This document shows positions 10,834-61,178 of a stretch of 64,000 nucleotides of DNA, one piece after another (position 1 is the first letter of the stretch; each line of letters begins with the position of its first letter). The stretch is from a virus. Taxonomy: Duplodnaviria; Caudoviricetes. The notes under the pieces are model-generated. The model worked only from the letters and a program-made list of their open reading frames with translations, was not told the DNA's origin and ran no database searches. The stretch is from the IMG/VR virus record IMGVR_UViG_3300010882_000012. The stretch is one strand, 5' to 3'. The position numbers and the translations under genes were made by a program.

Positions 10834-11021
10834 ATTCTTTATTTAGTTTTTTCAATTAATACATAACAATAATGTAAACAATTTAACAGTGTACTTATAC
10901 CGCCGCTACTTATTTTAACTATTTCCCAATCATCATTTAATCTTCTTTCAAGTTCACAAGTATTATTACCTTTTACTAATATAAGTTCTTGTTTTTTCAT
11001 TTAATTTTTCTTTTTTCTTTT

Positions 11022-12518: not shown

Positions 12519-12993
12519 TTAGATTAGTAAGGCATTTTTATTTTATTTATTCAAAAAGTTTCATGTTTTGGTAGGAATTGGAAATTACATGTATTTTATG
12601 GTAGTATTTTGAGGGTATTTTGGAAAAAATCGGAGATTTTTGGAAAGTTATGGAAGAAGAGTAAAAGTATTTAGTTACTATAAGATTATTATAAGAATAA
12701 GTTTAAATTTAGTATTTTTACTGTAATGTAAAACCTTAAAACCTACATCATAAAATTCTGCAGACACTTAGTAAATTCTATAAAAACCTAGTTAAACAGG
12801 CTCGTTTTGACGAAAATTTTTAGGTCTCTATTCTAACTATCTCACACTAAGCGCTTTACACATCCTATCTACTTGGTTTGCTAGGTTTTTGCAAAAAATT
12901 AACAAATTGTTAGTATTTTCTTGCAAATTGTTAGTAACTTTTTTACTAAATTTTTACAAATCTTTCTAACTCACTTTTGCAAATTTTTTAATA
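12519..12993. other. 475-bp non-coding region with repeats and inverted class-1 motif (possible origin/terminus)
   Basis: GTATTTT repeats; IR 12782-12791/12881-12890; tandem AAATTGTTAGTA 12904 and 12925. Confidence 0.4.
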
Positions 12994-15014: not shown

Positions 15015-16730
15015 TTACTGCTTTACCACTTTAACCGTCCGTATCCCTATATCTGTATGAACTTTCACCATATAAACGCCAACGGATAAGTGGCTAATAT
15101 TCAAACTATTATTTCTTATCTCAGTTTGTAGGATTTTACGCCCTTCAATGTTAAATACCTCTACGAATTTGACAACCTCATCGGTTTGAATATAGAGTTC
15201 CCCATTTGTAGGATTGGGGTAAACTACCAATTTTTCGATTTCGTTCTCCGTTACGCCAACTCCTATTTTAAATACAGCTGAAATTGTGCCATTCGATTGC
15301 ACATTCGTAAATGTGTAGGTAGTTATAGCTCCTTTCGATTCACCGTTAACTAAAACGTTATCAATCACATAATTGGTTTTTGGAGCAATCGTAAATGTAA
15401 TATTGCCGCCTTCTTCAACTTTTGCATCGCCGAACGGATCTATCGTTCCCCAATCCGCATTATTTACGGTTGCTGTAATCGTATAAATATTGCCGTTTTG
15501 TTCATCCGTTTTGAATGTTGCCGAATTTGAAGGCGGTGATGCCAAATGTGTGGCGGTTTCCTTCTTTCGCTGTTTGAACGTATATGATGTGTTGGGCGTT
15601 AATCCGTTAAACACATTAGAGCTCTGCCAATTACCGTTATCCTTTTGATACTCACAACCTTCAACTGTATTCAATGTTATGGATGTAGGCGTTTTCGACT
15701 GTAATGTTGGTGTGGGCGGTGCTGTTTGGGTGGCTTTCGTAACTGTTGCTGTTGGTGATGAGGTCATACTGCCGATAACCTTTAAAGCCATATAACCGCC
15801 GCTATTATCATAAAAATCTCCAACATAAATTGTTACGGCGATTTCTTTTCCGATATCATCAGCTGTTAAAGTATAGGTTTTACTATTGCCGCCATCCACC
15901 GTAAGATAATAATCATCAATAATCGTACCATTACGTTTCCACCCATATTTTATTATTTCATAAGGCCACATTGAAAAATTGGAATGATTTACTGTTAATG
16001 TTTGACCGAAAACCGGATTGCCGCTAATTGACAAATTGGCACTGATTACGTTGATTGTGAAGTCTTTAACGAAATCGTTTGGAAATATAATATATGCACT
16101 ACCATCTTCATTAGGATATTGTATGGTTGCTCTAATTGTTGTGACTCCTTCATTTTCAGCCAAAAACCGATAAGCCAAACCACCCAAATGAGTTAGTGTG
16201 GCGTTTGCAGATCCGGGGTCAACCATTGACCACACTATTGATGGATATGACTGATTGGCTTCATAAGGAACAAATATATTATTATCAATCGGCATATACA
16301 ATGGTATATTGGCGACAGCAGTAGTTGGGATGTTGATGATGTCGGTGACTGAGAGGATGGCAGAGAAGTTTTGATTAGGCAGATTTTCGGTAAGTGGCTC
16401 TATATAAATGGATTCGGGTACAAACCGATAACCTTCTTTTTCCGGTATGAGATCTCCAAAACCACCCAGTGGAACTCCTAATACGTAATTCCCATTTGCA
16501 TTAGTTGTAGTAGATAATATATCACATCGTATGGTTGTGTTGGGTAGTGGTTGAGATGTTTGATAAATTCTAACAGTACCGGATACAGTTACCCATTGAG
16601 CATTCGCTTTCAACGGATTGACTATTGACATTATTATAAATCCCAAAACAACTATTATAAAAGCAATAGTTGAGGGAATTCCGGTACCCACTTCATTAGG
16701 GTAAGGTTTTAAATTTAAAAGATTTTTCAT
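15015..16730 (-). CDS. T9SS type-A C-terminal sorting domain protein (Ig-like/Fn3/InlB-B-like repeats)
   Basis: Signal peptide ending ANA-Q; FNGLTPNTSYTF; C-terminal VYPNP...LSVGVYMVK...KVVKQ. Confidence 0.88.
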   Translation of the reverse strand: MKNLLNLKPYPNEVGTGIPSTIAFIIVVLGFIIMSIVNPLKANAQWVTVSGTVRIYQTSQPLPNTTIRCDILSTTTNANGNYVLGVPLGGFGDLIPEKEGYRFVPESIYIEPLTENLPNQNFSAILSVTDIINIPTTAVANIPLYMPIDNNIFVPYEANQSYPSIVWSMVDPGSANATLTHLGGLAYRFLAENEGVTTIRATIQYPNEDGSAYIIFPNDFVKDFTINVISANLSISGNPVFGQTLTVNHSNFSMWPYEIIKYGWKRNGTIIDDYYLTVDGGNSKTYTLTADDIGKEIAVTIYVGDFYDNSGGYMALKVIGSMTSSPTATVTKATQTAPPTPTLQSKTPTSITLNTVEGCEYQKDNGNWQSSNVFNGLTPNTSYTFKQRKKETATHLASPPSNSATFKTDEQNGNIYTITATVNNADWGTIDPFGDAKVEEGGNITFTIAPKTNYVIDNVLVNGESKGAITTYTFTNVQSNGTISAVFKIGVGVTENEIEKLVVYPNPTNGELYIQTDEVVKFVEVFNIEGRKILQTEIRNNSLNISHLSVGVYMVKVHTDIGIRTVKVVKQ

Positions 16731-18865: not shown

Positions 18866-18893
18866 TTTCTTCACTATCAAAATTCAAAATTCT

Positions 18894-20159
18894 CTAAAAT
18901 AATTTTTTCTGATCTTGTATTACAATATAACGATCTTCCATGCTGGATAATTTTGGTTTGGGAATCGGTACGATATACCGTGGATCTTTTTGTTGTTGAA
19001 AAAACAGACTACTTTTACTGTTAATAGGACCAATTGGCTGAAAATAATAACTGAAATCACTATTTTTATTACCATGTACTTTCTTTATAATCTGCATGAT
19101 TTCATCTTTTGATAAAGAATGATTTTTTAATTGCATCGTAGATAAAATCATACCACGTGCTGACATATCATGTGGACAACGACCTAATCCTTTACCACGT
19201 TGATATGGTTTTCTTTCTTTTGTTTCTACTACCGGAATTACTTTTTTGCAAGATTGTCTAACTTTTCCTTTTACAACAGGTTTTTCTACCGGAGCTTCTG
19301 TTACAAGTCTGAAAGTGGATTCCATTTTTGTAGCACCAGATTCTACTAATAGAAGAAAACGTTTATCAGTTTTATTCTGCTTCAAAAGAGAAGAAAATGA
19401 ACCTACACCATTTGTACTCGGTTTTTGAAAATAATGGATAAAGCAATTGCAATTATCGACAGTTTTTTCTAAAGTAGGATAAGAGGTACCAAGAAGAAAT
19501 TCAAGTACTTCTCTCATAGTAACATCTTTTCCTTGTGCTTGAATCCAATCTAAACCCAGAGTACGGAGAGATTTCTTTACAGGTTCTACTTTCTTAGATG
19601 TGGTTGCAACCTCATCTTCAATTGGTTGTGCTTGAACAGGCATCGGCGGAATATGACGACAAGCAAATCCATTTTTAAACATGAATTCTGCCAGTAAACC
19701 TTTTTGAACTAATTTAGAAAGCGATTCAGATAAAGCACCCAAGATAATGGATTCTTGCACATGTAACGGACAAGCTTTGTATGCATCTGCATTCACATAG
19801 TTATTGTAAAGATCTCGCATTGCTAACGCATCATTGTGATCTTCATAGATAAGACCATCTGCCATAGTATTGTCCTTTTTACTAAGGATGATTGTTCCAG
19901 TTTTCATTTTGATATTGTTTAAAGTTAATTTTTGTTTTACCTCAGTTTTAAGTACTTGATTCCACCGTGCTGCTAGCATACTGTGACCGATGTGAAATCC
20001 GTTACAAATAGGGCATTGGTATGCATCAAATGGAGCTCCCATACTAAGTGTTACACCTTCTGCTGCTTTTTGTGCAATTTCCAACGTTTCATATGCTTTC
20101 TTTACTTTGTTTCCTTTAGTAAAATGAGCATTTTTCTTTTGTTTTAGTGTTAGTTCCAT
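18894..20159 (-). CDS. multidomain protein: Zn ribbon plus two repeated putative winged-helix-like domains
   Basis: AYQCPICNGFH; two YFQ...SSL...D.R[FY] repeats. Confidence 0.7.
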   Translation of the reverse strand: MELTLKQKKNAHFTKGNKVKKAYETLEIAQKAAEGVTLSMGAPFDAYQCPICNGFHIGHSMLAARWNQVLKTEVKQKLTLNNIKMKTGTIILSKKDNTMADGLIYEDHNDALAMRDLYNNYVNADAYKACPLHVQESIILGALSESLSKLVQKGLLAEFMFKNGFACRHIPPMPVQAQPIEDEVATTSKKVEPVKKSLRTLGLDWIQAQGKDVTMREVLEFLLGTSYPTLEKTVDNCNCFIHYFQKPSTNGVGSFSSLLKQNKTDKRFLLLVESGATKMESTFRLVTEAPVEKPVVKGKVRQSCKKVIPVVETKERKPYQRGKGLGRCPHDMSARGMILSTMQLKNHSLSKDEIMQIIKKVHGNKNSDFSYYFQPIGPINSKSSLFFQQQKDPRYIVPIPKPKLSSMEDRYIVIQDQKKLF

Positions 20160-20160
20160 A

Positions 20161-21432
20161 TTAACGCTCTATAATTTCAACGATATAACGAATTGTTGAC
20201 TGTTCTGTAGAATAAACCATAAACTCATTATTACGAATTGAAGTGCCGGCATGAGCATAAACACTATCAAAACCTTCACGATCAAGTTGTTTTTTATTTA
20301 AATCATAACAAGCCGATGTATGATTATAGATATGTTTTTGATTGCCCACATGAACATCATAGATTGCTAAGAAAGCTTTTTTGCTACAACCCTTTGCCCA
20401 ATAAGAACCAGAAAGAGAAGTATATCCAATAGATTTTTGTGCTTTATCTGCAAAATAAACAGAATTTCCATACATTGCACCTGTAATTATTACACCCGCC
20501 GGACGTATTAAAAGTCCGGTTTGCAAGATGTTCATCCAATTTTCATTTCTGCTACCATGCCAAAACAGTTCGCATTTTTGGTTTTTGGCTTTTGCAACAT
20601 AGCTCTTAAAGTTTCCTTCTGTTTTTTTGTTTACCACAGAAAAAGCTCTTTTGTACTGACCGGAATTGTTTCCCATCATTTTCTTAATGAGTTCTGCTTC
20701 TTTAGAAGACACTTCTTTAACTTCTAGTCCAAGTACCTCAAGCATGTCCATAGTGCTCTTAGAATTGCCCGTTTGCGTCCTGGTGGCTTCTTTTTGTTTC
20801 TTTATTGCTTCAACCTGACCCGCCATAACGTCCAAAAGTTTTTGTTCATCATCTAGCATTCGTTGTAATGATGAGGTAGAGTATCCGCTTTCTACAAGAT
20901 GGTTTTTTACGTGAGCCATTTTTCTCGGTACTGTTCGATACAATTTCAACAAACAATCATTAATAGTTGTTGAAGTACTTTGATTTCTTAAATGACCAAC
21001 CAAGTTGTCAAGGATTTTTTGAGCCTCATCAACTTGTGCTTGTGTAACATCTTCTTGAGTTACAGAATAGTTTTCTTTAATGGTTTTGTTTGCATATGCT
21101 TGGAGTTCGTCAATGAGTTGACGCACCATAGCATTCTGGATGGCGGTTACTTGTGCTCCGGTTGTAGCATCTTTGATATCGGCCTCAATCTTTTCAGTAT
21201 AGAGGTGTGTGATATCATTGTAACCTTTTTTGGTTTTTTCACGATACTTTTTATCCCAATCCGACATAGGATAAGAGTGCTCTATGGAGGTAGATTCTAT
21301 CCTGCCATAAACCACTTTAAAATTTCCATCGTTCTGCTCGAACATATGGTAAAACTTGTTGTTATTGTCCCCTGTAACACAAACCAGTTTTTTAACTTGT
21401 TTGCCTGGTACCGAGTAATCTGATATTTTCAT
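20161..21432 (-). CDS. poly(ADP-ribose) polymerase (WGR + regulatory + catalytic domains)
   Basis: NNNKFY..YGR; LYRTVP; WHGS, MYGNSVYFAD..KSIGY, NEFMVY (H-Y-E triad). Confidence 0.9.
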   Translation of the reverse strand: MKISDYSVPGKQVKKLVCVTGDNNNKFYHMFEQNDGNFKVVYGRIESTSIEHSYPMSDWDKKYREKTKKGYNDITHLYTEKIEADIKDATTGAQVTAIQNAMVRQLIDELQAYANKTIKENYSVTQEDVTQAQVDEAQKILDNLVGHLRNQSTSTTINDCLLKLYRTVPRKMAHVKNHLVESGYSTSSLQRMLDDEQKLLDVMAGQVEAIKKQKEATRTQTGNSKSTMDMLEVLGLEVKEVSSKEAELIKKMMGNNSGQYKRAFSVVNKKTEGNFKSYVAKAKNQKCELFWHGSRNENWMNILQTGLLIRPAGVIITGAMYGNSVYFADKAQKSIGYTSLSGSYWAKGCSKKAFLAIYDVHVGNQKHIYNHTSACYDLNKKQLDREGFDSVYAHAGTSIRNNEFMVYSTEQSTIRYIVEIIER

Positions 21433-21455
21433 ATGATATTGAATTTTGATAGTAC

Positions 21456-21512
21456 AAAAATACCGCTTTTTTCTTTACGATGAGAACCTAGATGGAAAAA
21501 GATACTAACAAT
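21456..21512 (-). promoter_or_regulatory. Class-1 promoter (one mismatch) for PARP unit
   Basis: ATTGTTAGTATCTTTTT plus TATTTTTG box. Confidence 0.75.
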
Positions 21513-21532
21513 TTCATGATAAGGTTTAAACT

Positions 21533-21560
21533 AAAAAAGTCCTTGATTACTCAAAGACTC
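21533..21560 (-). terminator. intrinsic terminator
   Basis: AGTCTTTGA-GTAA-TCAAGGACT-TTTTT. Confidence 0.8.
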
Positions 21561-21621
21561 TTTTAGACGTTCAAAAATCATTATTCACAAAATCTTGATA
21601 AATGAAAAAATCAAAAATTGT
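21533..21621 (-). ncRNA. candidate ~85-nt U-rich sRNA
   Basis: Own class-1 promoter and terminator; at most a 16-codon ORF. Confidence 0.6.
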
Positions 21622-21626
21622 ACTAC

Positions 21627-21683
21627 AAAAATATTGTAATTCTAGATATGAAAGTTTAGTTACATGAAAAAGTTACTAACAAT
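21627..21683 (-). promoter_or_regulatory. Class-1 promoter
   Basis: Motif plus box at fixed spacing. Confidence 0.8.
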
Positions 21684-21690
21684 CTGTTTA

Positions 21691-21723
21691 AAAAGAAAAA
21701 CGCCCATAGATTCTTTCTGGGCG
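21691..21723 (-). terminator. intrinsic terminator
   Basis: CGCCCAGA...TCTATGGGCG-TTTTTCTTTT. Confidence 0.75.
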
Positions 21724-22068
21724 CTTCTCGTCAGATTTTTGGGCGAAGGTTCTGTAACACCTTTTCTGGCAGCCTAATGGACCTAGTTGAAATCAATTGT
21801 TTTCTGTCCCGGCAGCATGCCCCATAAACCAAGATTCATTTCATGTTCAGGTTCTTGGTCGACCTGATTGCCGGCAAGGTGTTTTCGCTTTCGCTACGGA
21901 TTACCTTCGGTGCCGGCAGGCATTCTAAAGACCTGACTCGCGATTCCCGAACGGTTCGCATTATAGCGGCGGGCTCGAGGAGGTCTGGTTTTTCCGAGTT
22001 GACGTTAGGATTCCGCGCGGAGATTCCTGGTTTCTGATCAGCCTACCAGGTAGTGTCAATCGGATGAG
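21691..22068 (-). ncRNA. candidate ~375-nt GC-rich structured ncRNA (RNA1)
   Basis: Own promoter and terminator, no minus-strand ORF in track, many nested stems, pseudoknot. Confidence 0.75.
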
Positions 22069-22073
22069 ATTGT

Positions 22074-22152: not shown

Positions 22153-22190
22153 AAAAAAGAAAAGAGTCCTTAGATTACTCTAGGACTCTC
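22153..22190 (-). terminator. intrinsic terminator
   Basis: GAGTCCTAGA-GTAA-TCTAAGGACTC-TTTTCTTTTTT. Confidence 0.85.
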
Positions 22191-22415
22191 TTCACCACCC
22201 AAATTGCTATTTGATTCCCCAATAGGTTGCAACCCTCCCAAGATTTCGGCATAGGTTCTTGGTTGACCGTCTTCTAGGTTGCTGGCGGTAATACGCTTTA
22301 AAAGCTTCCGCATCTTGCATTAACCTAATCGTGATTTTTCACCCCGACCACACTATTTGGTTGTTTTCAGCCCGGTTGTGAACCTCCTCGATTACTCGTT
22401 CGAGTCGACAATAGA
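22153..22415 (-). ncRNA. candidate ~260-nt structured RNA in 3' UTR (RNA2)
   Basis: Shares GGUYRACCAAGAACCU...AAUCUUGG with RNA1; nested stems. Confidence 0.65.
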
Positions 22416-22417
22416 TA

Positions 22418-23245
22418 TTAAAACATGTCTGCTTTTAAAATACGGATACGAACATCCGGATAAGGAACTCCAGTATAACGAGAATAAGCAGCTTTTGCTT
22501 GATTTTTTGTCATTACAGCATCATAATAACGCTCTTCCTCATCCGGGAATTTAACAGGATGTCCAAAACAAACATAATCTCCTTTTTCAGGATATGTAAT
22601 ACCTGCATCCTTATCATCAGTATCATCAATATCATCTTCAAGACGATATTGAGAATTTGCAAGCGCGCAAGGTTCATCATCAACTGTTGAAAAAAGCTCT
22701 GGATGGAATTCTTCAAGTTCTTCTAACGTAATTTCACCATAATGGATATTGGCTAAGTACTTTTTCAAATTTTCGCGGGTACCGGTCAAATTTGCGGAGG
22801 TGTTTCCAGTTACTTCAATTTCCAAATTGTAGTTTTGCAACACCTCTAAGGCCTCATCAAGTTCTTCTTCATCACATACCCAATCAACATCAACAATGAA
22901 TTGGTCATTAAGTCCGTAAAGGTCTGTAACCATTGCATTTACGGCTTGGTCATGTGCATGATCTTCATCATTCATTGCATTCAAAATGGTAAGCGCACGG
23001 AGATCATCCATAGCTTGTGCATCACAAAGAGATTTGAAGTAAATCCGGTAGTCTCCATTGTGTCTCCAGTCTATAACACCCTCATTTTTGAGGTCTTGCA
23101 TGAAAGTTGAAACAATTTGCTGCGTTGCCCAAAAATCGTTGGCGCGTAATTCGTTTTTAACTTCTAAAGTTGTGGTTTCTCCGTTCAATTCGATTAGAGT
23201 TTGTGCAACCACTTGCACATCATTTTTTGTAGTTGTCTTTTTCAT
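22418..23245 (-). CDS. acidic hypothetical protein with possible N-terminal winged helix
   Basis: TTTLEVKNELR...TQQIVS; Asp/Glu-rich. Confidence 0.8.
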   Translation of the reverse strand: MKKTTTKNDVQVVAQTLIELNGETTTLEVKNELRANDFWATQQIVSTFMQDLKNEGVIDWRHNGDYRIYFKSLCDAQAMDDLRALTILNAMNDEDHAHDQAVNAMVTDLYGLNDQFIVDVDWVCDEEELDEALEVLQNYNLEIEVTGNTSANLTGTRENLKKYLANIHYGEITLEELEEFHPELFSTVDDEPCALANSQYRLEDDIDDTDDKDAGITYPEKGDYVCFGHPVKFPDEEERYYDAVMTKNQAKAAYSRYTGVPYPDVRIRILKADMF

Positions 23246-25999: not shown

Positions 26000-26032
26000 A
26001 TCTGATAAATTTGAATTTTGATTTGATAGTGT

Positions 26033-26089
26033 AAAAATACAGAAAAAATCAATACGATGAGGTCCTAGATAGAAAAAGTTACTAACAAT
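26033..26089 (-). promoter_or_regulatory. Class-1 promoter
   Basis: Motif plus box. Confidence 0.8.
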
Positions 26090-26101
26090 CTGTTTAAAAT
26101 T

Positions 26102-26146
26102 AAAACATCCTCAGTCAAGAGGATGTTTAAACATCCTCAGTCAAGA
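26102..26146 (-). terminator. hairpin terminator with 18-bp direct duplication
   Basis: AAACATCCTC-N6-GAGGATGTTT; repeat 26103-26120 and 26129-26146. Confidence 0.6.
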
Positions 26147-26318
26147 AGATGAGTAGGCATTAATTGGATATTGTTAAAGTGACCGACAAGCGTGAGTATT
26201 AAACATCCTTTAGGATTTCCATTAAGTTTGTGAAAATTTCAAAACACTAAACCTTGTAACCGTCTCAATCCACCGGTAAGCCCATACTACCGTCAAAATA
26301 CGTTGAAATTATTACTAT
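26102..26318 (-). ncRNA. candidate ~200-nt ncRNA
   Basis: Class-2 motif upstream, hairpin downstream, only very short ORFs. Confidence 0.4.
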
Positions 26319-26320
26319 AC

Positions 26321-26346
26321 TAGTATGCGAAGGTTACAAAAAGTTT
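26321..26346 (-). promoter_or_regulatory. Class-2 motif AAACTTTTT-N11-ATAnTA
   Basis: One of four fixed-spacing intergenic copies. Confidence 0.5.
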
Positions 26347-26355
26347 CAGTTTTTT

Positions 26356-26384
26356 AAAAAGAAAAAGCTCTCATTTAAGAGAGC
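26356..26384 (-). terminator. intrinsic terminator
   Basis: GCTCTC-N6-GAGAGC-TTTTTCTTTTT. Confidence 0.75.
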
Positions 26385-26443
26385 CATACTTTTGCAACCA
26401 GTGGTGCTAAATCATTATTTCTGTGAACTTAGTGCAAAAGCTA

Positions 26444-28945: not shown

Positions 28946-28970
28946 CTTTTCACTATCAAATCAAAATTCT

Positions 28971-29734: not shown

Positions 29735-30064
29735 TTAATTAATTTCTACTATTTTCCAAACATTGCGATTACCAAGAAAACTCTTAAGAGAAATTTGGTC
29801 GACTGCCATATACTCATGGATATAACCCGCTTTATCTTGTACCCAATAACAATTAAGAACGTCTGAAAAGTCAAACTTCCATCCGAGCAATGGAATAGCT
29901 GTTTTAAAATAGGAGTTGGTATTAACTCCTTCAGTAATAAAACGGGCATCTTCTCTTGAAAGATCTTCTCCGTTGTTTACTTTTTCCATGATAGCATACA
30001 CTTTTGAGTTTTGAACGGCTGTAATATTATTTGCTGTTTCTGAGAATTTGGTTATATTTTGCAT
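29735..30064 (-). CDS. hypothetical phage protein
   Basis: IPLLGWKFDFSDVL. Confidence 0.75.
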   Translation of the reverse strand: MQNITKFSETANNITAVQNSKVYAIMEKVNNGEDLSREDARFITEGVNTNSYFKTAIPLLGWKFDFSDVLNCYWVQDKAGYIHEYMAVDQISLKSFLGNRNVWKIVEIN

Positions 30065-30131
30065 GTTCGTTATTATTAAACGGTTTGAAATTTTGAACGA
30101 ATTGAATTGATGTTGTTTGTGATTTTGAACG

Positions 30132-30383
30132 TTACAGTAATTCTAAGAAATTAGCATTACCCCAACCGTCTGCTCTTCTAATCCAAGCATTGTGGCTGGT
30201 AAATTCTTGATCTCCCCAATAAATGGTCCGATCTAAGTTAACTTTAACATTAATAGTATGGATATCTTTGGTCACCTCTGCTATAGTACCTTCTTCCATT
30301 TGTCCGAAAGTCATAGTTTTGCATTTTCTACCGATGAGGTCATTACGGAGGATTCCATTAGGTGCTAATTCTTGTACTGTCAT
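30132..30383 (-). CDS. SH3-like hypothetical protein
   Basis: Start corrected to MTVQE. Confidence 0.7.
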   Translation of the reverse strand: MTVQELAPNGILRNDLIGRKCKTMTFGQMEEGTIAEVTKDIHTINVKVNLDRTIYWGDQEFTSHNAWIRRADGWGNANFLELL

Positions 30384-30482: not shown

Positions 30483-30534
30483 CTTTTCCACAATCAAAAA
30501 TTCAAAAAAGTTCTCTATTCAAGAGAATTTATTA

Positions 30535-35919: not shown

Positions 35920-35940
35920 TTTGATTAATTTTGATACCAC

Positions 35941-36013
35941 AAAAATAGCATAATTTTCTTTACCATGTTGTTTAAAAAGAGAAAAGTTACTAACAATTTG
36001 TGATGCCAGTAAC
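35941..36013 (-). promoter_or_regulatory. Class-1 promoter with hairpin extension; drives unit containing NAD genes
   Basis: Motif 35982-35997. Confidence 0.78.
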
Positions 36014-36259
36014 TTTTACTCTATTTCCCATTCTCTTTCTTCTGTGGTTGCTTCCGACTGAACTACAAACTCTGGGAGAAGTTTGTTTCTCGTTTCACAA
36101 ATTCAAGATACGTCTCACCACCAGATATTACCTGAATCTCCACGAGCTTAAATTCGATATGTTCTATACCTACTCGTTCTCTTAGTACTAATTAGATTAA
36201 TTAAAGTTAGCGTTCTCATCAATTTCTCTGCTTAGTTATCATCAATCAAAATTCTATTT

Positions 36260-36285
36260 TATTATGCGCAAGTTTTAAAAAGTTT
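36260..36285 (-). promoter_or_regulatory. Class-2 motif
   Basis: AAACTTTTT-N11-ATAATA. Confidence 0.5.
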
Positions 36286-51317: not shown

Positions 51318-51373
51318 TCTTCCCAATCAAAATTCAAAAAGCCGGAGTTATCAATTCCGGTTTGCGAGTAATC

Positions 51374-54648: not shown

Positions 54649-55077
54649 TATTTTTCAATTTTAATTAGTTTAAGAAATCTTGTCAATTTGTTGTTTCTAA
54701 AGTTTTTCTTTTTAGCTTCAATGACAAAAAGTATTACACAAACTAACAAAGCTCCAACATTAAAAGATGGAATTAAACAAGCAACAAAAGAATACTATAA
54801 AAAGAAATTAGTCCATTTTACTATTGCATTAAAAACAGAAATAATGATAAGACAAATCAAAATGATAAAAACATGTAATCCAACCATAACTTTATTCTCC
54901 TATCATTATTTTTAATGTTCTTACCACAATTAGGACAACAAACATTGTATTCTTTAATTCGTTCTTAATTAAATCCACCATGTACTTTGGTATAAGAAGA
55001 TTCATCAAAACTCAAGTATTCATGAACTTTTTCACAGTGTTCACATTTAATGTAACAGTGATCATTAAATTTTGTCA

Positions 55078-61143: not shown

Positions 61144-61178
61144 TTTCTCTAATTAAAAATTCAAAGTATGAAAAATCA

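Follow-up and report, generated by a model that had tools for sequence, protein, structure and literature searches.

The question raised by positions 21533–21621 is why a phage should carry a promoter that runs into an intrinsic terminator within about 89 nt, with no credible gene between the two, and whether the short RNA predicted from this arrangement acts on other transcripts. The original prediction read the stretch as an anti-leader small RNA of about 85 nt, complementary to the leaders and start regions of phage genes and with candidate sites upstream of the ATG at 30064. The window, which is the whole stretch of 64,000 nt that was analyzed, corresponds to bases 82407–146406 of a 146,406-bp IMG/VR virus record (G000); the two agree at 63,999 bases, and the sole difference lies at position 11001 (T in the window, C in the record). 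The CheckV completeness estimate is 56%, and the record is therefore taken to be a fragment of a jumbo phage. The minus strand holds every credible gene of the window, and the packing is tight, with about 11.5% of the genome free of ORFs by a crude count.

A member of the Bacteroidota is the very probable host: a T9SS sorting domain occurs in a phage protein, the −7 box of the repeated promoter is of the σA type, and the leaders are A-rich and devoid of Shine–Dalgarno sequences. The sorting domain, Por_Secre_tail (T9SS C-terminal sorting), lies in a 571-aa protein encoded at 15015–16730 on the minus strand and comes from a precomputed Pfam match on an identical contig. The −7 box follows TAnnTTTG, the σA −7 consensus of the Bacteroidota (PMC6847099, PMC9723704), in which translation initiation relies on unstructured, A-rich leaders (PMC6847099). 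The features on which the argument turns are the following.

21667..21683, minus strand: upstream box of promoter P2, ATTGTTAGTAACTTTTT, an exact match scoring 26.8 bits with a leave-one-out PWM
21634..21666, minus strand: spacer of P2, 33 nt, of the family length and degenerate in sequence
21626..21633, minus strand: −7 box of P2, TATTTTTG, which fits TAnnTTTG, the G at −5 included
21567..21621, minus strand: predicted start and U-rich body (about 48% U), unstructured and single-copy in the genome
21531..21581, minus strand: 16-codon ORF, MIFERLKESLSNQGLF, by sequence reading, with codons 6–16 inside the terminator hairpin
21531..21566, minus strand: intrinsic terminator (termC), a 16-bp hairpin with a GUAA loop and U6 at 21538–21533, homologous to the terminator at about 22190–22155
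21455..21512, minus strand: promoter P1 (box 21512–21496; −7 box 21462–21455), assigned to the PARP gene 20161..21432
30120..30132, minus strand: claimed target site, ACGUUCAAAAUCA, 56–68 nt before the ATG at 30064 and overlapping the final base of the stop codon of the preceding gene
30091..30099, minus strand: second claimed site, CGUUCAAAA, too short to be given weight

P2 belongs to a family of repeated cassettes, termed class 1, that is defined by the upstream box, a gap of 32–34 nt (mostly 33), TATTTTT(A/G), a conserved proximal spacer (GTA followed by a T/A run ending in AG or GG), and an A-rich leader with an ORF within 15–45 nt. Searching the 146-kb record for the box followed by TATTTTT(A/G) yields 24 cassettes, 23 of them with a spacing of 33 nt and one with 32 nt; the window contains 22 class-1 copies, for example at 1077, 17848, 18852, 28931, 30467, 37071, 51303, 61130, and 63157. 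The ATG of an ORF of at least 43 aa is placed 15–35 nt past the −7 box in 22 of the 24. The only ORF-less cassettes are P2 and P3, the latter 446 nt upstream of P2 and at the head of a 380-nt GC-rich noncoding unit, and both reside inside one 985-nt ORF-free stretch. The box occupies −62 to −46, and about ten copies of it also supply the 3′ arm for the terminator hairpin of the preceding gene (GGTTACTAGCA..TGTTAGTAAC, then a U run). A canonical −33 TTTG is missing from the cassette as read from the sequence, so a phage factor may be involved at these promoters.

The same cassette recurs in a 217.7-kb relative (G001, IMGVR_UViG_3300010167_000012), where 17 of the 20 class-1 copies stand before ORFs, two at a tRNA-Asp/tRNA-Glu region, and one before a noncoding unit of about 210 nt that has a terminator. 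The copies at the tRNAs and at the noncoding unit imply that RNA-only modules, as predicted here, occur in this phage group. The tRNA-Asp and tRNA-Glu promoters lie at 153645 and 153421 of the relative, a jumbo phage that carries 11 tRNA genes (149729–153520). The class-1 cassette marks the start of predicted transcription units very reliably, and the terminator–promoter cassette with its invariant 33-nt spacing, by which transcription modules can be defined, is a more solid and reusable result than any function assigned to a single short RNA.

At P2, both boxes and the class-1 spacing of 33 nt are present, and the −7/start region scores well (16.3 bits with the leave-one-out weight matrix). 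The conserved proximal spacer is lacking: with −2.0 bits on the same matrix, the P2 spacer comes last among the 24 copies of the record, and it agrees with the GTATCAGTATTTTTAG type at 10 of 18 positions and is without the conserved GTA...TTTTAG features. The promoter had been described as a full class-1 promoter, which is accurate for the boxes and their distance but not for the proximal spacer. The total score of P2 ranks 38th of 44, and copies ranked lower also precede a gene or a tRNA. No ORF of at least 30 aa follows P2, and the initial transcribed sequence is AGUACAAUUUUUGAU in place of AGUAUCAAAAU; the presence of the most degenerate spacer at P2 fits relaxed constraint. Because the −7 element occupies −12 to −5 in Flavobacterium (PMC6847099), transcription should begin at A21621, and this σA rule gives the same start as the one originally proposed.

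The weak spacer also bears on whether the locus, hereafter unit C, is transcribed at all. It might be silent, either through the class-1 cassette being no promoter or through P2 having died by spacer decay, and this would accord with the status of the class-1 promoters of this phage as predictions from sequence, with the loss of the spacer features, and with the missing −33 TTTG. However, the box, the spacing, and the −7 box are intact at P2, with the full TAnnTTTG motif and the G at −5, and similarly low-scoring copies precede genes or tRNAs (G0-63157, G1-153645). A silent unit is accordingly regarded as an unlikely state of affairs.

On the minus strand, the order is the box, the 33-nt spacer, the −7 box, a U-rich body of 56 nt, the hairpin, and U6, and the predicted RNA of about 89 nt ends with the hairpin and U6 at 21533/21531. 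The whole unit folds with a z-score of −4.3, equaled by none of 200 shuffles, and the hairpin contributes about −19 kcal/mol; the 56-nt body alone has a z-score of +0.66, so that the fold signal comes wholly from the terminator hairpin. The pairing of a promoter with a terminator, as described in the original prediction, is beyond chance, as judged by cassette membership, by the invariant spacing, and by the fold, and the strings UUUUUGAUUUUUUCAU, GAUUUUG, and UGAUUUUUGAACGU that had been quoted from the body are all present in it. By its layout, unit C stands apart as an ORF-less unit in which a genuine copy of the repeated promoter is combined with a strong predicted intrinsic terminator, and a short U-rich RNA is probably made from it.

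The terminator and the body differ in their relationships. Together with the following TTTAAACC.. and the P1 box, termC is homologous to the junction at 22190–22113, at which the upstream unit A ends and P3 begins (termA+P3). This homology begins only at AGAGTC, within the 5′ arm of the hairpin, and does not extend into the body, which is unrelated; the terminator is therefore part of the P1 cassette and not of a conserved RNA body. For the same reason, the idea that unit C is a truncated copy of unit A was ruled out. No paralogue of the body was found in the 146-kb record or in the 217.7-kb relative, where only short chance matches occur. Unit C is thus bordered on both sides by a repeated terminator and promoter, termB+P2 upstream and termC+P1 downstream, and P2 and P1 are direct repeats 171 nt apart. 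A reading of the plus strand, with a σ70-like promoter at 21584–21611 and a 21-codon ORF, was also rejected: matches of this kind occur at chance frequency (9 against 6.3 ± 2.3 expected), the promoter is not of the Bacteroidota type, and all genes of the window lie on the minus strand.

This arrangement suggests that unit C, from 21621 to about 21533 on the minus strand, is an ORF-less class-1 module left by the shuffling of terminator–promoter cassettes, its RNA being a by-product; a probability of roughly 45% is assigned to this reading. The early-type gene modules of the phage would be built from a repeated composite terminator/promoter element similar to the PeSL elements of T4-like phages, and at this locus termB+P2 and termC+P1 would have come to stand nearly back to back, with only the unique U-rich stretch of 56 nt between them. 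Polymerase starting from P2 at A21621 would stop about 89 nt on, at the terminator of the termC+P1 cassette, and the functional parts would be the promoters and the terminator, which may shield P1 and the PARP gene from upstream transcription. We infer that transcription starts from P2 and terminates efficiently, and that the RNA is without function in trans. The regularity of the family supports the ORF-less module reading, as only P2 and P3 of the 24 regular cassettes are orphans. Against the by-product reading, recombination between P2 and P1 in such a compact genome would delete unit C, yet the unit is present. A clean single cassette at the position of unit C was found in none of the relatives, so no shuffling event is documented.

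PeSL elements are composite promoter/terminator cassettes through which the modules lying between them are inserted and deleted (PMC2839356, PMC4122927). As in PeSL (Arbiol et al. 2010, PMC2839356; Comeau et al. 2014, PMC4122927), a short terminator is joined to a strong promoter, many copies of the element are interspersed among small genes of a single strand, the modules would be transcriptionally isolated, and about 60–100 bp of homology would be available for insertion, deletion, and swapping. In contrast to PeSL, the sequence is unrelated, the −7 box of the phage is of the Bacteroidota type, and the distal box at −62 to −46 doubles as a terminator 3′ arm; moreover, the unit C module lacks any ORF, and no insertion or deletion between relatives is documented.

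A coding function for the short RNA would have to reside in the 16-codon ORF. Its product could be a 16-residue peptide, or its translation could modulate the terminator in the manner of a leader-peptide attenuator: an ATG-initiated ORF does exist at 21581–21531, it is preceded by a degenerate leader-like UAUCAAGAUUUUG, and it crosses the hairpin, so that a ribosome could prevent hairpin formation. However, the stop codon, UAG, straddles the end of the U-tract, and terminated RNAs would therefore mostly lack a stop codon. In addition, the ATG lies 44 nt past the −7 box, compared with 15–35 nt in the 22 gene-driving copies, and its upstream context is U-rich rather than A-rich. A peptide product is unlikely because of this distance, the U-rich context, the codons buried in the hairpin, and the stop codon at the end of the U-tract. 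Attenuation would find little to control, as the PARP gene is provided with P1 beyond the terminator, and the folds show no antiterminator alternative to the hairpin that the ORF overlaps. Both versions are considered very unlikely.

The proposal that the RNA targets other messages rested on its complementarity to the region upstream of the ATG at 30064. The reverse complement of the 14-mer UGAUUUUUGAACGU matches at 30132 with one deletion and has no other site, so that the 13-bp pairing with one bulge at 30132–30120 exists as described, but it is not singled out among 46 sites of equal quality. When all 14-mers of the body (60 nt) are combined, 46 distinct sites occur at an edit distance of at most 1 in the sense transcriptome, compared with 30 ± 10 for dinucleotide shuffles of the body, 6 of 60 of which reach 46; within −30 to +70 nt of start codons, the 19 sites of the body compare with 10.4 ± 5.1 for the same kind of shuffle (7 of 60 reach 19). 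The second site, 30099–30091, is also present, but as a mere 9-mer in AT-rich sequence. A location 56–68 nt upstream of the ATG is not the usual position for translational repression by pairing. Any RNA with U-tracts acquires dozens of apparent targets when the genome is AT-rich and its mRNAs are A-rich, and a 13-bp match with one bulge is weightless unless it is set against composition-matched controls.

Duplex energies lead to a similar picture. Against 266 start regions, the best duplex of the body has −28.5 kcal/mol (shuffles, −26.7 ± 1.75; 7 of 45 as good) and the mean duplex −17.0 (shuffles, −15.4 ± 0.6; 1 of 45 as low). When start windows of −35 to +20 are used, the mean is −13.83 kcal/mol, and 1 of 121 shuffles of the body, which average −12.29 ± 0.57, is as low; nevertheless, internal coding segments of the same genes give −13.88. 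Natural sense-strand windows matched for U and GC content average −11.77 ± 1.17, and 9 of 139 are as low, which places the body in the top 6.5%. The complementarity of the body to targets is not beyond chance, and the body, being rich in U-runs, is somewhat better than its shuffles at pairing with the A-run-rich mRNAs of the phage generally.

Leader identity was assessed with a profile HMM built from 39 class-1 leaders, which, on either strand, gave no match within 21533–21621 at E ≤ 100; on the antisense strand, the same run recovered the true tail elements at 51325–51340, 18873–18889, 30491–30507, 28959–28969, and 61156–61167. No 12-mer of unit C matches the tail motif with at most one mismatch. 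A generic 6-mer score of leader-likeness derived from all ORF starts was abandoned in favor of the leader HMM, being too noisy (unit C ranked 13313 of 94362). The body is neither an antisense copy of a leader nor aimed at the proposed target. The anti-leader identity is consequently not sustained, given the silent leader HMM and the equal pairing with TIRs and coding segments, and the suggestion of a trans version of the tail element fails on the same HMM result. A sponge for an RNA-binding protein, which had also been suggested, is likewise unsupported, the unit having only one degenerate leader-like motif and no repeats.

A more general trans-acting role can be separated from these specific claims. 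The U-rich 5′ part of the RNA could anneal to A-rich, Shine–Dalgarno-less TIRs of the phage or the host and lower their translation or stability; the layout is the classic one of a small RNA, with its own predicted promoter, an unstructured 5′ region, and a predicted Rho-independent terminator, and class-1 promoters drive RNA genes in the 217.7-kb relative. In principle, a U-tract RNA could block leaders that are A-rich and unstructured (PMC6847099), and the mean duplex energies lie below those of the shuffles. However, the pairing shows no preference for TIRs over coding segments, 9 of 139 composition-matched natural windows pair equally well, the best single target is reached by 7 of 45 shuffles, the leader HMM finds nothing, and the named target is one among 46; this role is thus held to be possible but doubtful. 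Were unit C a true riboregulator, it would stand out as a rare phage small RNA from the Bacteroidota, with their translation from Shine–Dalgarno-less, A-rich leaders, where phage RNA biology is almost unexplored. For the by-product reading, the body without structure, paralogue, or TIR-specific complementarity is supporting evidence, and its better-than-shuffled pairing with A-rich mRNAs (1 of 121; 1 of 45) counts against it.

Tail elements themselves are real. The sequence UUUGAAUUUUGAU(A/U)G(U/G)G, also written as the anti-leader motif UUGAAUUUUGAU ahead of terminators, stands directly before several terminator hairpins, for example at 28954–28969, and each cassette is flanked by an inverted repeat made of this tail and the leader of the next gene. 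The tails match the leader AUCAAAAUUCAA of many units and not specifically their own: matches of 14–16 nt to the own leader occur in 3 of 22 units (14, 16, and 15 nt), and other leaders match the same tails over 15, 19, and 16 nt. Since other leaders match equally or better, the complementarity is generic, and unit-specific covariation between leader and tail was rejected. By analogy with T4 gene e, the tails may sequester the start of the next gene in read-through transcripts. In T4 genes e, soc, 49, and I-TevI, an upstream arm sequesters the TIR, and the transcripts from an internal promoter are translated (PMC3014915).

Unit C has a sequence in the corresponding place, UGAUUUUUGAACG, which ends 1 nt before the hairpin. 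In the predicted fold of 21621–21405, 28 of 31 nt in the PARP TIR (−17 to +14) find partners, in collinear order, at body positions 7–51, and the pairing encloses the terminator and P1 (whole fold: z-score, −2.9; 2 of 200 shuffles as good). The body could thus act in cis, pairing with the PARP leader and start in read-through transcripts so that only mRNA initiated at P1 is translated. This would be in keeping with the extent of the pairing, with the position of UGAUUUUUGAA just ahead of the terminator, where other cassettes carry tail elements, and with the T4 precedent of genes e, soc, and I-TevI (PMC3014915). However, when 266 TIRs are ranked by the energy of their duplex with the body, that of PARP is only the 29th, its pairing is broken by several bulges and an internal loop of 13 nt, much of the z-score is due to the terminator hairpin, and most read-through would already be stopped by this strong terminator; a cis role is improbable on balance. 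The phage tail elements, and weakly unit C, resemble the T4 arms in being complementary to a downstream start from a position upstream of the promoter. They differ in that T4 uses a compact local hairpin with a late promoter inside, whereas the arms in unit C and PARP are about 150 nt apart with a terminator between them, and their pairing is imperfect and not PARP-specific.

The surroundings of unit C bear on the shuffling interpretation as well, as the cassettes mark the 985-nt region as an RNA-only array beside the PARP gene. Unit B (21691–22072, minus strand), which is placed under P3 (box 22129), is a noncoding stretch of about 380 nt with about 43% GC, compared with 33% for the genome; it ends in the terminator GCGCCCA..UGGGCGUUUUU, has no Rfam match, and folds with a z-score of −2.6 (1 of 100 shuffles as good), and is likely to be a structured noncoding RNA. 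Unit A (22153–22417, minus strand) is an ORF-free stretch of about 265 nt between the stop codon of the gene at 22418..23245 and the terminator, with a fold z-score of −1.5; its Rfam match, CsrC-like and full-length, is weak (22 bits, the gathering score being 61; E = 2 × 10⁻⁴). Units A and B have the hairpin ACCAAGAACCU..AAUCUUGG in common. In the window as a whole, no Rfam family reaches its gathering score and there are no tRNA or tmRNA genes, the 146-kb record also being without a tRNA gene; at a permissive E-value, 21533–21621 yields nothing credible (STnc230 and IS128 weakly, E > 7). The existence of an array with noncoding units A and B counts against a mere scar and suggests a dedicated RNA locus.

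Unit C could accordingly be the third member of a dedicated, promoter-driven array of noncoding RNAs (A, B, and C) that works with the PARP enzyme encoded downstream, although this is extremely improbable. The PARP gene (20161–21432, minus strand) encodes a catalytic domain of PF00644 (E = 2 × 10⁻²¹). One possibility would be that an A-initiated, NAD-cappable RNA is attached to proteins by the ADP-ribosyltransferase; RNAylation, the attachment of RNA to proteins, is known for T4 ModB (PMC10468400). Another would be that the RNA is a ligand that activates PARP. The predicted A at +1, the position of unit C next to the PARP promoter, and the status of the array as the largest ORF-free stretch of the window are consistent with such a link. 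The partner gene of PARP (18894–20159, minus strand) encodes 421 aa and matches no Pfam family. Relatives of the PARP protein number 2047 at E ≤ 10⁻¹⁰, on metagenomic and phage contigs with varied gene neighborhoods.

Comparison across contigs adds little variation from which a function could be read. The PARP protein itself is present on at least seven contigs, and the four loci fetched, from four samples, are 100% identical over 4–9.3 kb, the whole intergenic region included, and therefore carry no covariation information. Samples in which this phage occurs are represented by assemblies ERZ27257295 and ERZ27257297, run SRR10512950, and JGI 3300010162. Among the next PARP relatives, at 51–65% identity, one contig breaks off 19 nt ahead of the gene; in the others, genes are tightly packed upstream of PARP and the array is missing. 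Searches for the surroundings were negative: 5.8 billion proteins include no relative of the 275-aa protein encoded upstream of the array, no close relative was returned by megablast against the phage collection, and an exact 24-mer of unit C had no match in viral contigs. A metagenome scan with the termC-type cassette pattern gave no match; with the general class-1 pattern, it returned only contigs like the 217.7-kb relative, one like the 146-kb record, and one new 30.6-kb relative, none with a homologue of unit C, which is also absent from the 217.7-kb relative. The hairpin motif shared by units A and B was rejected as a search anchor, its 26 matches in viral contigs being nearly all coding, mostly in a terminase-like gene, and attributable to chance.

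Known phage small RNAs of comparable size provide a last point of reference. Lambda OOP is antisense to an overlapping gene, and prophage DicF has validated targets and a conserved seed. With these, and with T4 RNA C and RNA D, unit C shares a length of about 60–100 nt, the lack of a credible ORF, a predicted promoter and terminator of its own, and a location in a nonessential early-type region; unlike OOP and DicF, it lies opposite no gene, lacks a homologue, and has target complementarity at background level. T4 RNA C and RNA D are themselves phage small RNAs with their own promoter and a Rho-independent terminator, and their function is unknown (PMC3014915). Within the Bacteroidota, Rfp18 of Flavobacterium psychrophilum (PMC9723704) is similar in being an independent unit with a σA −7 box and a proposed pairing with mRNA in an organism without Shine–Dalgarno sequences. 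Bacteroidota small RNAs such as Rfp18 show conservation between species and, often, structure, whereas unit C has structure in its terminator only and no detected homologue.

Two further sets of loci were noted. In the 217.7-kb relative, the class-1-driven noncoding unit of about 210 nt with its own terminator precedes a locus (62096–65260; L066 2096–5260) in which a DUF2828 gene is interrupted, its N-terminal ORF encoding 175 aa and its C-terminal ORF 358 aa (DUF2828 and DUF7788). A gene for a GIY-YIG (SegE-like) endonuclease lies between the two halves on the opposite strand, and the locus could be an intron or a homing-endonuclease insertion together with an associated RNA. In the window, other ORF-free stretches of 365–475 nt on the coding strand are found at 12519–12993, 26000–26443, 54649–55077, and 35920–36284, and these four may contain further noncoding units.
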